NCBI RefSeq assembly: GCF_050920415.1
Contig: NZ_CP169309.1
Origin: Escherichia coli
GTDB lineage: Bacteria > Pseudomonadota > Gammaproteobacteria > Enterobacterales > Enterobacteriaceae
Reading direction: 5' to 3' (one strand)
Length of the DNA stretch: 64,000 nucleotides
In this document: positions 2,436-57,501 of the stretch, piece after piece
How the letters are laid out: the number at the start of each line of letters is the position of its first letter
How positions within the stretch are numbered: position 1 is the stretch's first letter
Made by a program: the position numbers and the translations under genes
Notes under the pieces: model-generated
The model's database searches: none
Seen by the model: the letters and a program-made list of their open reading frames with translations, nothing else
Told to the model about the DNA's origin: nothing

Positions 2436-2709
2436 ATTTCCCTCCGGTCATTGGGTGGACTCTTAAAGGGTAGACGCTGATATATAACAGGCAAAAAAAA
2501 GCCGACTCATCAAAGTCGGCGTCGTACGAATCAATTGTGCTATGCAGTAATTCAAAAAAGGAAGTAAGACAATATGGAGCGCAACGCCCATCGCTTGACG
2601 TTGCATTCACCTGCAAGAGAGATATTGCCCTGAATGGGTAGAGAGTTTATTGACTTCGCTCAAACTTTGCGGCGTTTTTGTATACAGATAGTAGGGAAAA
2701 TTGCTGTTG

Positions 2710-5764: not shown

Positions 5765-6093
5765 GTTACATCCTCCCGCAATTAAGAGCGCGATATGATA
5801 ACCAGACCGGGTCGGTCCAACAACGTATTACCCAAAATTCCAGTAATAAGTTCCAAATATTGCCGATATTTTAAGCAAAATGCTTATGCATGATTATTCA
5901 TTCACGATATTAATAATGTAACTTATATTTTCGTGAAATCTGTCACTGAAGAAAATTGGCAACTAAAGGTTAAAACCGTTATAACACAGTCACCGGCGCA
6001 GAGGAGACCATGCCGGATTTAAGACGCGGATGCACTGCTGTGTGTACTGTAGAGTCTGGCGGATGTCGACAGACTCTATTTTTTTATGCAGTT

Positions 6094-15698: not shown

Positions 15699-17309
15699 TC
15701 AATGTTTCACAATATACATAGTCCGGCTATACGCCACATCTTCCGGGTTATTAATGGGATAACCTTTCAGCCACGGCTTGATTAATCGTCCATTGGTATA
15801 TTGATAAATTGGTGCAATCGGTGCTTGCTCCATGAGGATTTTTTCTGCCGCATTGTAATCGGCATTACGCGCTTTAACGGTATTTTCCGTCGATGCCTGG
15901 GCCAAAACTTTGTCGTAGGCCGGGTTGTTAAAGCGTGAAATGTTGCCTGAATGCGTTGACGTTAATAATGTCAGGAAGGTGGAGGGTTCATTATAATCCC
16001 CCACCCACGAGGCGCGGATAACATCAAAATTACCTGTATTACGACTATCGATATAGGTTTTCCATTCCTGATTTTGCAGTTTGACATCTACACCAAGGTT
16101 CTTTTTCCACATCGATGCCACAGCAATCGCAATTTTTTGATGGTTTTCTGAAGTATTATACAAAAGCGTCAGCTTCAGCGGTTTTTGCGGACCATAACCG
16201 GCTGCGCTCAACAAAGTTTTTGCCTGCGCATTCAGTTCTTCCTGACTCATTTGTTCAAACGGCGAAGGCTCCGGCGTGAATCCGGCAGTAACATCTGGCG
16301 TAAAATGCCACGCTGGTTTTTCGCCCGTCCCCAACACTTTTTCGGTCATCAGGCGGCGATCTATCGTCATACTTAATGCCAGACGAACGCGCTGATCTGC
16401 CGTCGGCCCTTTTTGCGTGTTAAACGCATAATAATAGGTTCCGAGCTGCGGCGGTGTATAAACCTGCCCCGGAATATCCTTCAACAGCTTCTGATACATA
16501 TTTTTGGGGAAGGATTCGGTGATATCAATATCCCCCGCGAGATAACGCTTAGTGGCTGCGGATTCCTGATTAATTGGCAGGAAGGTCACTTTTTGCAACA
16601 CCGTTTTGGCGTTATCCCAATAATGGGTATTTGGCACCACGACCAGTTTTTCATTGACTACACGCTCTTTAAGAACATAAGCGCCATTGCCGACCAGATT
16701 TCCGGGTTTCGTCCACTCTTTCCCGCTTTCTACGTTAGCTTTTTGCACCGGGAAGAAGGCAAAATTGGCTGTTAAATTCACAAACCACGGCAACGGTTTA
16801 TCAAGCTGGATTTTCAAAGTACGGGCATCAACCGCGGTGACGCCTAGCTGATCAGGCGTAGCTTTACCATCAATAATCGCCTGTGCGTTGTTGATTCCCG
16901 CCAGCGCGGCAAACCAGGCAAACGGCGACAACGTTTTTGGGTCAACCAGACGTTGCCAGCTGTAGACAAAATCCTGTGCCGTTACCGGTGTGCCATCCGC
17001 CCATTTTGCGTTATCGCGCAGGGTGAAAGTCCAGATACGGTTGTCATTACTTTTCCACTGAGTCGCAACGCCGGGGACAATCTCCCCTTTCTCGTTCTGA
17101 TTCACCAGTCCTTCAAAAAGATCGCGAATGACCTGAATCTCTGGCAGACCCACGGCTTTAGCGGGATCCAGCGACGCAGGCTCATCTTTAATATGGCGCA
17201 CCAGCTCCTGCTTCTCTGCCAGTACTGTGCCGCTCGGAACTTCTGCAGCATACGAAAGAGACATTATGCAAAGTGGCAAAAACGATATATAAATCATGAT
17301 TTTATTCAT
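15699..17309 (-). CDS. mppA: murein tripeptide-binding periplasmic protein MppA (OppA paralogue) with replaced N-terminal signal peptide
   Basis: family-5 SBP sequence; mature part from SLSYAAEVPSG matches MppA; N-terminus MNKIMIYISFLPLCIM differs from the K-12 sequence as I recall it; start at 17309 chosen within longer track ORF. Confidence 0.78.
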   Translation of the reverse strand: MNKIMIYISFLPLCIMSLSYAAEVPSGTVLAEKQELVRHIKDEPASLDPAKAVGLPEIQVIRDLFEGLVNQNEKGEIVPGVATQWKSNDNRIWTFTLRDNAKWADGTPVTAQDFVYSWQRLVDPKTLSPFAWFAALAGINNAQAIIDGKATPDQLGVTAVDARTLKIQLDKPLPWFVNLTANFAFFPVQKANVESGKEWTKPGNLVGNGAYVLKERVVNEKLVVVPNTHYWDNAKTVLQKVTFLPINQESAATKRYLAGDIDITESFPKNMYQKLLKDIPGQVYTPPQLGTYYYAFNTQKGPTADQRVRLALSMTIDRRLMTEKVLGTGEKPAWHFTPDVTAGFTPEPSPFEQMSQEELNAQAKTLLSAAGYGPQKPLKLTLLYNTSENHQKIAIAVASMWKKNLGVDVKLQNQEWKTYIDSRNTGNFDVIRASWVGDYNEPSTFLTLLTSTHSGNISRFNNPAYDKVLAQASTENTVKARNADYNAAEKILMEQAPIAPIYQYTNGRLIKPWLKGYPINNPEDVAYSRTMYIVKH

Positions 17310-17351
17310 ATATTTTTTAACCTTAAAATAATATGGTACACACAATGGTAC

Positions 17352-17381
17352 ACAAAAAGAAACGAGGCGTTAGCCTCGTTT
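17352..17381 (-). terminator. rho-independent terminator after tail fiber gene
   Basis: hairpin aacgaggc-gtta-gcctcgtt followed on minus strand by TCTTTTTGTG. Confidence 0.55.
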
Positions 17382-37967: not shown

Positions 37968-38864
37968 TTACTCCCAATCTTCGCCATATTTAGCGTGCGC
38001 AACTTTATAGTTTTCTTGCGCCCGATTTAATATTCGTTCGTTTAATATGTTACCGTCTTCGTCAACTAATACGGTAATCGTGCTACATTTGCAGTTAATA
38101 GAATTTGGGGATCTGCTCCACCATTCGCGCTGCTCATCTATGGTGTATGTTTTCCCGTGCCGTTGCGCGTGCGATAGCCTGGTTGTCGGTGACAATGCCG
38201 AAATGTGCATTTGCATAGTGCGCAGATTAAATTCTTCTGTCGCCGCTTCTGCCTCATCCATACGCGCTGTGCGTAACGCTGTGCATATTTCAGTTCGGGC
38301 AATACGTTTGCATCTGTATAGCGGTAACTGCGTATCCTGATTCAATGTGCGCGCTATTTCCAGTGGATTTAAACCACGGGCCATGCCTTCAGTTAATCGG
38401 CGGGCCATATCCTTTTTTATCTGTGCGGTCAGACCGCGCATCTCTTCAAATACACGGGTACGCACCAGGGCAAGGCGTGTGCGGTAAGTTGTGCTGGATA
38501 GCACGGCGGATACATCAGGATAAGCGCTTGAATATGTGACAGACTGGTTAGCAAGGTTGGCGTATTCCTGCGCGGTCCCTCGCTGATATGCAACCTTCAC
38601 GTACTCCTGCCAAAACCAAAAACTTTCCGGGTCGGTTAGCTCGAATATCTCATCAATCATGTTGCTGGCATCCTCCAGCATGTCGTGCAATTCATCCATG
38701 TAAATCTGGAAGGTGTATTTCTTATTAACAGCCAGGCTATATTGTATTCTGTCCAGTATGGCGATATATGGATCGGCTATTTTCTTCAGGCAGGATTTAA
38801 AACGCTTAATAGCGCCCGACCGCAACTTACCTGTCATGGTCGGGTCTTCGGTGTTAGATGGCAT
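37968..38864 (-). CDS. head morphogenesis protein (Mu F / SPP1 gp7-like)
   Basis: about 298 aa following portal; start position uncertain (overlaps portal 3' end). Confidence 0.6.
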   Translation of the reverse strand: MPSNTEDPTMTGKLRSGAIKRFKSCLKKIADPYIAILDRIQYSLAVNKKYTFQIYMDELHDMLEDASNMIDEIFELTDPESFWFWQEYVKVAYQRGTAQEYANLANQSVTYSSAYPDVSAVLSSTTYRTRLALVRTRVFEEMRGLTAQIKKDMARRLTEGMARGLNPLEIARTLNQDTQLPLYRCKRIARTEICTALRTARMDEAEAATEEFNLRTMQMHISALSPTTRLSHAQRHGKTYTIDEQREWWSRSPNSINCKCSTITVLVDEDGNILNERILNRAQENYKVAHAKYGEDWE

Positions 38865-40227
38865 TATCGCGGAGGGCGGTATTCTCCTGATTATTTTCTT
38901 CACCTTCATCATCGTTTTCCTCGTCTTCCAGTTCTACTTCACTAGCTGGGCCATCGTATCCGGCAGCTTCGCGGATCTCATCGCCGCTAAATATTTCCTC
39001 ACCAGTAGCGAGACATGCCTGATTGATTTGCGCCATCTTGTGTGCCGCTTCCAGTAGTTCGGCTTTTGTCATAGCATTCAGGTCATCCCATAAAACTGAT
39101 ATATCGACTGGCATACTGATAAGGCGTAGATCTGCCATCTTGCGGAATAGTTCTTCAAGCTCGCCTCCGATTTCCTCACGACGGGTCATACAGCGATTAT
39201 TGAAGTAGCGGAGGTCTTCAGTTGATGCGCGTTCACCCTGCTGATTGCCAACCAGAATACGCGTTGGAATGTCGATACCAGCGGCGGCGGTTTGCAGGTT
39301 GACGTCATAGGTTGCAGATGGATCGGCTACGGCAGTGACCAGCGGGCTAACGGTAGCTCCCTGTAATGCCATCATCACATCATTACCTTTGTTTATATCC
39401 TCTGCCGCTTCATTGAATTTTTCGCGTAGCTCTGTAACGTCGCAACCGTATGTTGCAGCCAGAGAACGGAAATCAATCTCTTTGTCGAATGAGATAGCTA
39501 GTTGACGTGCGGCGTTTTTAAGGAATGACTCACCGCTACCACCTTCCACTTTCTCCAGCGAAACGAAAGCGTTATAGGATGGCTCAAGGAAAGCGATAGC
39601 ATCATCAGAATAGTCACCAAATATAAAGATCCGGTCTGGATGGATTTTCCTTGCTATGGTCTTATTGTTGATGCGTTCTTTGTATTCCCACCATGTCGGC
39701 AGGCCATAGTTTTCATTATCCGGGTTTTCTTCGAAGTCCTTCGGCGTCAGAGCGCCAGCCCACACAGGGGTGAATTTGGCAATGCCTGCACCTTTCGTCA
39801 CTGGCTTATCCCACGGCTGGCTATCTCTGACATGAATTAACAGGCCCGCATAACGACCGATGAGGCGGCGGCGATCACATTCAGCTATGACGCGCCAGAA
39901 TCGATTATCGAATCGTTTTTTGATTTCTCTTTCCCACGGCGTTTCCTTTTCTGCTTTCTCGTCTTCCGTGCCTTCAATCATCGCTGGCCTGGTGCGCCAA
40001 CACGTCGTGATAATCTTTTCAATAGCACCGTGAGCGATACCACCGCGACGATACAGCTTATAAAGATCATCATAGGTGATCTCTTCTTTGAATCCGTATT
40101 CACTCCAGGCGGCATCACGCTTTGCATCAATACCCATTGAGAAAGGATGCGCGGCGGCATAGCGTGCAAAGGCCACCTGACGTTGTGACAAGGCAGCATT
40201 AACCGCCAATTCTAAATTGGATGGCAT
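38854..40227 (-). CDS. portal protein
   Basis: about 457 aa from MPSNLELAV with AGGAG RBS; acidic C-terminus; directly downstream of TerL. Confidence 0.7.
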   Translation of the reverse strand: MPSNLELAVNAALSQRQVAFARYAAAHPFSMGIDAKRDAAWSEYGFKEEITYDDLYKLYRRGGIAHGAIEKIITTCWRTRPAMIEGTEDEKAEKETPWEREIKKRFDNRFWRVIAECDRRRLIGRYAGLLIHVRDSQPWDKPVTKGAGIAKFTPVWAGALTPKDFEENPDNENYGLPTWWEYKERINNKTIARKIHPDRIFIFGDYSDDAIAFLEPSYNAFVSLEKVEGGSGESFLKNAARQLAISFDKEIDFRSLAATYGCDVTELREKFNEAAEDINKGNDVMMALQGATVSPLVTAVADPSATYDVNLQTAAAGIDIPTRILVGNQQGERASTEDLRYFNNRCMTRREEIGGELEELFRKMADLRLISMPVDISVLWDDLNAMTKAELLEAAHKMAQINQACLATGEEIFSGDEIREAAGYDGPASEVELEDEENDDEGEENNQENTALRDNAI

Positions 40228-40306
40228 AATGTTTACTCCTGAATGCATGTTTACGCGTTGCTACGCGAAAAATAGAAAAATTCGTGATGGATTTGTGAGA
40301 TGGTTT

Positions 40307-56859: not shown

Positions 56860-57501
56860 TCATGTGATCGGAATCACTCGGTTAATGCAGTACACGTTTT
56901 CCCTGTTCAGGCATCGGCTGTGCGTTTTTCCTTGCATCGTTAAGCGTAGCGATAGCTGCCTGTACTCCCAAAACACTAGCGCGCATATCATCGCCAACAA
57001 AATTACCGTAAAGCACAGGAATAAAAGCCTTAATGTTATCTTCTTCGTGTCCTTCCTCAATAAATTTCTGCAACATCTTAACTTCAAATATTTTTTCATC
57101 ATTCCGCGAATAGAATACAAAGAAGCGCTACCCATTCTGTTTTCATCAATAGGGAAGATAACAGCACTACCAAAAGCCATAGGATCAACATCTTCAGGCA
57201 CTGGAACGCGTCCGAATTCTTCCTCCATGCGTTTTACAAAAGAAAGGCAGAATACATAACGCGCCACCGTTGTTTTTTCTTCCAGGCTTAAAGACACGTA
57301 ATCGCGGATTGACGCATCCATCATAATATCAACAATATGTAGCGCCAGGTTTAAATCACCGTCATACACGCCAGCATCCATATCTTTTAATACTTCGTGA
57401 TAATCCTTAGTTACCACTTCGTGAAAGCTCGCGTCTTCTGTGTAGCGAGTGATTAACATGCCTTCGCTGCCGAGTGAATAAGCTGTTTTGATGTTGTTCA
57501 T
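56860..57501 (-). CDS. hypothetical protein, possibly frameshifted at an A6 tract (or two overlapping ORFs)
   Basis: N-terminal frame and a second frame (56882..57076) can be joined by +1 A at the A6 run 57091-57096. Confidence 0.3.
   Translation of the reverse strand: MNNIKTAYSLGSEGMLITRYTEDASFHEVVTKDYHEVLKDMDAGVYDGDLNLALHIVDIMMDASIRDYVSLSLEEKTTVARYVFCLSFVKRMEEEFGRVPVPEDVDPMAFGSAVIFPIDENRMGSASLYSIRGMMKKYLKLRCCRNLLRKDTKKITLRLLFLCFTVILLAMICALVFWEYRQLSLRLTMQGKTHSRCLNRENVYCINRVIPIT

Follow-up and report, generated by a model that had tools for sequence, protein, structure and literature searches.

A gene in the early region of an mEp021-like prophage in Escherichia coli has very probably lost a single nucleotide from a run of A's, in what we regard as a genuine and recent A7-to-A6 deletion in an accessory gene, ordinary rather than programmed. 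The gene belongs to the mEp021 gp25 / PHROG 1515 family, of which it is a disrupted copy, and its lesion is a textbook homopolymer frameshift. In the window (the whole stretch of 64,000 nucleotides analysed here), the gene appears as two overlapping open reading frames on the minus strand, for which an earlier reading of the sequence had offered three explanations. The comparisons below support the first of these, a recent inactivating frameshift; they leave the second, a sequencing error, unlikely, and lend no support to the third, programmed slippage.

Reading frames at the A run and the intact relatives of the gene

The layout of the locus in the window is as follows:

56860..57501, minus strand: 213-aa ORF, with its ATG at 57501
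56882..57076, minus strand: 64-aa ORF, with its ATG at 57076 and its stop at 56882
56882..57501, minus strand: the whole frameshifted gene, homologue of mEp021 gene 25 and PHROG 1515, defined by intact homologues
57091..57096, minus strand: A6 homopolymer, where the 1-nt deletion took place; all five intact close alleles have A7
57091..57501, minus strand: native N-terminal part, codons 1-137, from the ORF call and the AF2 model
56860..57090, minus strand: out-of-frame tail of the 213-aa ORF, 76 codons and a stop, non-homologous sequence
56882..57076, minus strand: native C-terminal part, read from the internal Met143, from the ORF call and conservation

The native start is the ATG at 57501 and the native stop is the TAA at 56884-56882, such that the gene occupies 620 nt in the window as compared with 621 nt in intact alleles. 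At the junction, the minus strand reads ATG ATG AAA AAA TAT TTG AAG TTA AGA TGT, where the six A's lie at 57096..57091. Since the native C-terminal frame is open 5' of its ATG as far as 57127, up to a TAG at 57130-57128, it overlaps the other frame at the A run. Addition of one A to the A6 run joins them into ...MMKK-IFEVK-MLQKF..., a protein of 137+5+64 = 206 aa. The sequence-only reading had proposed that the two minus-strand frames and one added A make a protein of about 206 aa; this is what we find, and its ORFs, A6 tract and coordinates are all correct.

Matches to the nucleotide sequence of the region were found in 33 E. coli prophages from complete genomes and in seven phages. In all three of the annotations that we inspected (E. 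coli 2017C-4173W12, mEp021 and MagusPhagus), the gene is a single CDS of 621 nt; it is called mEp021_25 in mEp021 and CDS0108 in MagusPhagus, and the E. coli genomes have it as a hypothetical protein without a name. These relatives are 78.7-87.9% identical to the window gene at the nucleotide level, and the window DNA aligns with mEp021_25 from end to end with a 1-nt gap at the A run. The best 120 of 453 protein homologues are all encoded by single ORFs and cover 100% of the query; 119 of them are 206 aa long and one is 205 aa. The repaired protein matches PHROG 1515 with an E-value of 4.5e-54 over residues 6-206, and is homologous over its full length to the mEp021 gp25-like family; the genes of this family are uninterrupted ORFs, and the window gene is instead spread over two frames. 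The family is a narrow one, as the only members that an exhaustive search of representatives yielded were one of full length at the 50% level and a homologue with 26% identity.

The position of the gene is also shared. mEp021 gene 25 (AXN54144.1, 206 aa, hypothetical protein), MagusPhagus CDS0108 and PHROG 1515 occupy the same place in the early region as the window gene, with the mEp021 and MagusPhagus genes lying 3' of the ERF/SSB/Abc2 recombination genes and 5' of the Dam methylase, as in the window. These proteins are 76-97% identical to the window gene and both of its halves align with them. Relative to mEp021 gene 25, the window copy is short by one base and hence read in two frames; at codons 136-138, the window clade carries an A7 tract where mEp021 has AAATGC. 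As the relatives have one 206-aa protein to which each half is homologous, a chance juxtaposition of the frames can be dismissed: judged by homology, the ORFs at 56860..57501 and 56882..57076 are two halves of one gene, not chance neighbours. Comparison with intact homologues in other prophages had been suggested as a check on the original observation, and the single-ORF gene in the relatives supports a frameshift.

We also considered whether the 64-aa ORF (56882..57076) has a start of its own, in which case two products would act separately from a split gene. The ATG at 57076, which opens the native C-terminal frame, would allow for this, but we consider it extremely unlikely. Met143 is not conserved, being Ala in mEp021, P0016, P0076, P0091 and P0125, and we dropped the independent start on that ground. 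The stretch 5' of the ATG (GAAGTTAAG) reads poorly as a ribosome-binding site, there is no promoter-like site nearby, and scans for promoters, terminators and inverted repeats around the gene gave nothing above background. The exact 64-aa product is absent from the recorded called proteins. The sequence-only reading had named homologues with two ORFs and independent starts as the observation that would speak against a frameshift; none of the best 120 of 453 homologues has this arrangement, and the frameshift reading stands. The only other split allele that we found, in a prophage described below (L005), has the same 1-nt loss together with a further frameshift and looks like decay.

Alleles of the A run and the case for a real deletion

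The repaired 206-aa sequence is on public record exactly as predicted, as protein P0003 in Logan assembly SRR27876974 (L004). This allele shows no substitutions relative to the window over 620 aligned nucleotides; the sole difference is A7 versus A6. About 2.6 kb of the surrounding prophage in L004 is at least 99.5% identical to the window. The window and L005 read ATGAAAAAATAT across the run, whereas L004 and L008-L011 read ATGAAAAAAATAT; all five of the intact close alleles examined (L004, L008-L011) therefore carry A7. Given that the intact close alleles have A7, this is the ancestral state of the window allele and one A has been lost; given the lack of substitutions relative to the intact L004 allele, the loss is recent. 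More distant relatives have AAAAAGG, AAATGC or AAAAAC at the site and no long A run.

L005 (run ERR10124945; product P0002, 197 aa) has A6 just as the window does. It shares with the window a block of ~1.8 kb that is 98-99.5% identical, and as its flanks are only 61-90% identical, it represents a different mosaic prophage. L005 carries a second 1-nt deletion within the gene, where a run of A5 has become A4 at L005:~5660, corresponding to window ~56925 (GGAAAAACGC to GGAAAACGC), as well as six substitutions, four of which are non-synonymous in the native frame. In sequence terms, the second deletion and the substitutions are consistent with decay following the first frameshift.

A6 is thus found in two of the seven close-clade alleles whose DNA was read. 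This share is high unless the tract is unusually mutable, and it counts against our preferred explanation. Over the shared block, the window differs from L004 by ~0.15% and from L005 by ~1%; used as a rough clock, these values suggest that the window and L004 are sisters, so that either A6 arose twice or L004 reverted. Of the six substitutions in L005, however, five occur in L005 alone and one, at column 154, is homoplasic across the alleles; none supports a grouping, and so a single origin of A6 is compatible with them as well. Whether there was one origin or two, the A tract acts as a mutational hot spot. The rate of slippage climbs with run length, and a hot spot is what is expected of a 7-nt homopolymer. 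Exact-pattern scans of IMG/VR and the JGI metagenomes returned no further A6 or A7 copies, so the clade is rare in those collections.

Two other differences in run length were noted. At window ~59535, where the minus-strand ERF gene (59508..60149) nears its 3' end, the window has A4 and L004 has A3 (L004:~2151); the A3 lengthens the L004 ERF to 227 aa and creates a 44-nt overlap with SSB, while the window and L005 have an ATGA stop/start overlap. A T5/T6 difference between near-identical prophages lies at window ~60624, in intergenic sequence.

The A6 in the window could in principle be a sequencing or assembly error; in that case, the true genome would have A7, the gene would be intact, and one A would have been under-called in the homopolymer. 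Under-calls in homopolymers are the commonest error on several platforms. A miscall would account for an allele that is otherwise identical to the intact A7 allele in L004, and for the fact that the exact 213-aa product is on record on one contig only. Several observations argue against it, however. There are no indels across the 17,261 bp of host flank compared with E. coli N96, to which it is 99.84% identical. When we used tblastn to place 70 annotated proteins from the closely related LSU61 prophage on the window, 68 of them aligned full-length as a single HSP in one frame; one gene was absent and one was divergent. Only one of the 70 is split over two frames, and it is the homologue of the gene studied here, which aligned as separate HSPs in frames -2 and -1. 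An independent sequencing run processed by another assembly pipeline, ERR10124945 (L005), also has A6, and the genes next to it in L005 match those of the window in length. The further homopolymer indels that mark an artefact-prone assembly were not seen in the host flank or among these prophage genes; the defect is isolated. A miscall is, in our judgement, unlikely.

The open +1 frame and the possibility of programmed recoding

Downstream of the A run, the 213-aa ORF continues through a tail that includes a hydrophobic stretch of ~22 residues (LRLLFLCFTVILLAMICALVFW) and ends 22 nt beyond the native stop. The +1 frame is also open in all five intact A7 alleles (L004, L008-L011), and contains one to four stops in four non-A7 relatives. 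When synonymous codons were resampled over the 69 C-terminal residues, the probability of finding no stop was P = 0.023, with ~2.7 stops expected. We dropped the idea that the tail frame is an overlapping gene in its own right, as stops are present in the non-A7 relatives. A search with the 76-aa tail protein gave no match, though the search also missed the known carrier P0002, so its negative outcome carries no weight. The open +1 frame in the A7 clade is probably a coincidence: we treat it as chance because one clade is one observation, because comparable ORFs occur elsewhere, and because it was the long ORF that led to its being noticed.

These features nevertheless bear on whether the two frames serve a purpose, either through programmed recoding or dual coding, where -1 frameshifting or transcriptional slippage would yield 206-aa and 213-aa isoforms, or through a reversible A6/A7 switch of the phase-variation type. 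In keeping with such a role, A7 is retained in all five intact close alleles despite the variability of codon 137, the +1 frame runs without a stop through the rest of the gene in precisely the A7 clade and is closed in all four of the other relatives (P ~0.02), and A6 is found in two lineages whose block divergence suggests recurrence or reversion. We find a role of this kind very unlikely, given that most of the family lacks the A run at the site and has a single ORF, that the A7 clade amounts to a single phylogenetic observation, and that 3 of 34 gene-frames in other parts of the prophage contain an alternative-frame ORF of at least 76 codons.

The local sequence also argues against recoding. 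In the zero frame, the motif is G AAA AAA (ATG AAA AAA TAT) and does not fit the canonical X XXY YYZ pattern, of which A AAA AAG is an example; after a -1 slip, re-pairing in the P site would fall on GAA. No stable RNA structure is predicted downstream: 140 nt around and downstream of the run (57130..56990) fold with an MFE of -24 kcal/mol as compared with a mean of -26 for shuffled sequences, with z = +0.59 and 146 of 200 shuffles folding as well. Frameshifting of the dnaX and IS-element type shares with the window an A run read by tRNA-Lys, and here too a -1 shift would restore the native protein. Those systems, however, have an A AAA AAG heptamer that is preceded by an SD-like element and followed by a hairpin, whereas the window has no in-frame canonical slippery heptamer, no downstream stimulatory structure and no conserved two-frame layout.

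Efficient transcriptional slippage (at A or T) and contingency loci typically involve tracts of ~9 or more. A run of A6 or A7 is short by this standard, which argues against both, and a long homopolymer conserved together with the frameshift, as transcriptional slippage would call for, is not found. With phase-variable contingency loci, the gene does share a change of tract length from isolate to isolate that toggles the frame and switches the gene off or on, with A6 in the window and L005 and A7 in L004 and L008-L011. Between-isolate polymorphism of this kind is the weakest of the features by which contingency loci are recognised, and the only one seen here. In contrast to such loci, the tract is short, and one of the A6 alleles, L005, has been irreversibly damaged further; its second, non-restoring frameshift fits decay and argues against switching. 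A little full-length protein could still leak through, whether from low-level spontaneous -1 shifts or from RNA polymerase adding an A, as background and not by design.

The most elaborate version of this idea is that the A7 tract and the open +1 frame in the sub-clade form a dual-coding or contingency module that swaps C-termini by genetic or transcriptional slippage. If this were true, the C-terminus would alternate between the three-helix region and a 76-residue hydrophobic tail, possibly membrane-anchoring, and the window allele would be in the "tail-on" state rather than a dead gene. We regard the module as highly improbable, and return to the reading that the window carries an ordinary deletion.

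The chimeric product, its prophage setting and what the lesion means

The deletion probably arose when a strand slipped at the homopolymer as the DNA was being replicated. As a result, ribosomes would be shifted into the +1 frame past Lys137, and the expected product is a 213-aa chimera in which 137 native residues are followed by 76 unrelated ones. As the chimera would lack the last 69 residues of the native protein, which are conserved, the A6 allele is most likely a loss-of-function allele. As the alternative frame is open to 22 nt beyond the native stop, the whole interval would still be translated, and polar effects on downstream genes are not expected. Homopolymer-slippage pseudogenes in bacteria and prophages likewise show the loss of a single base from a mononucleotide run in a non-essential accessory gene whose neighbours are intact; the window gene differs from the usual case in that its shifted frame is open to the end of the gene and gives a full-length chimera, not a short truncation.

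An AF2 model of the 206-aa protein (mean pLDDT 72.5, pTM 0.69) contains a confident N-terminal beta-alpha domain at residues 1-96, with blocks over residues 1-90 at pLDDT 78-95, followed by a low-confidence, disordered linker at 97-125 and then three C-terminal helices. The frameshift point falls inside the helix at 125-149. Codon 137 itself is variable across the family, and the C-terminal part contains residues that are invariant even in the homologue with 26% identity (Y165, G166, G179, N188, K192, E199, L205 and H206). From the sequence and this conservation, loss of function of the A6 allele is likely, although the retained N-terminal domain might keep some activity. PHROG 1515 is listed as "unknown function". 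Searches with the intact protein against Pfam, NCBIfam and PADLOC, and by sequence against the PDB, gave no match; Foldseek of the AF2 model against the PDB and BFVD gave no match with E < 0.1 and none better than E = 0.2. The paper on the mEpimmI group mentions neither gp25 nor frameshifts (PMC11893012).

E. coli chromosome makes up the first 17.26 kb of the window and carries ttcA, dbpA, the abg genes, fnr, ynaI and mppA, and the mEp021-like (mEpimmI-group) prophage adjoins this host flank. The frameshifted gene lies in its early region, on the same strand as the genes for an S24/LexA-like repressor, ERF and SSB upstream and for Dam, NinG, RusA and Q downstream. The prophage interrupts mppA (minus strand, 15699..~17312) at its 5' end (junction at window 17262-17380), and host identity to E. 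coli N96 ends at 17261, 51 nt within the mppA coding sequence. The phage end gives MppA a new N-terminus, with MNKIMIYISFLPLCIMSLSYA in place of MKHSVSVTCCALLVSSISLSYA ahead of the shared AEV and with the signal-peptidase motif retained; a GC-rich hairpin (AAACGAGGCTAACGCCTCGTTT) lies just upstream. Judging from its sequence, MppA probably continues to be produced, now with a signal peptide that the phage encodes and with new sequence upstream.

Other features of the window were noted in passing. The genes for two sRNAs are at their usual places in the host flank, FnrS at 2497-2614 (minus strand, 134.8 bits) and McaS at 5992-6087 (plus strand, 117 bits), near dbpA/zntB and abgR, respectively. 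The closest complete genome for the host flank, E. coli MFDS1022581 (L007), has a 13-bp deletion in abgT (~window 10739) and a 1-nt loss in a G run of mppA (~window 17073); both genes are annotated as "frameshifted" in L007, and the window copies are intact. Within the prophage, a 464-aa ORF at 38854-40248 (minus strand) lies between the genes for the terminase large subunit and a minor head protein. Its LSU61 homologue, with 94% identity, is annotated "anti-CBASS protein Acb1 family protein" and is in the expected position of the portal gene.

The 213-aa product has been entered once in the public record (WP_432780781.1 / XVM70476.1), on a contig of 5.31 Mb, where it is a "hypothetical protein" and not a pseudogene. 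Since the shifted frame stays open, the broken gene escapes pseudogene calling. The value of the finding for annotation is that WP_432780781.1 should be a pseudogene, about one-third of it (the last 76 of 213 residues) being out-of-frame sequence. Homopolymer frameshifts are already known, and there is nothing new in kind here. As the remaining prophage looks intact, the lesion suggests that the mEp021_25-like gene is not required for prophage maintenance. Its biological weight is small: it would be another homopolymer frameshift disabling a dispensable accessory gene of a prophage.
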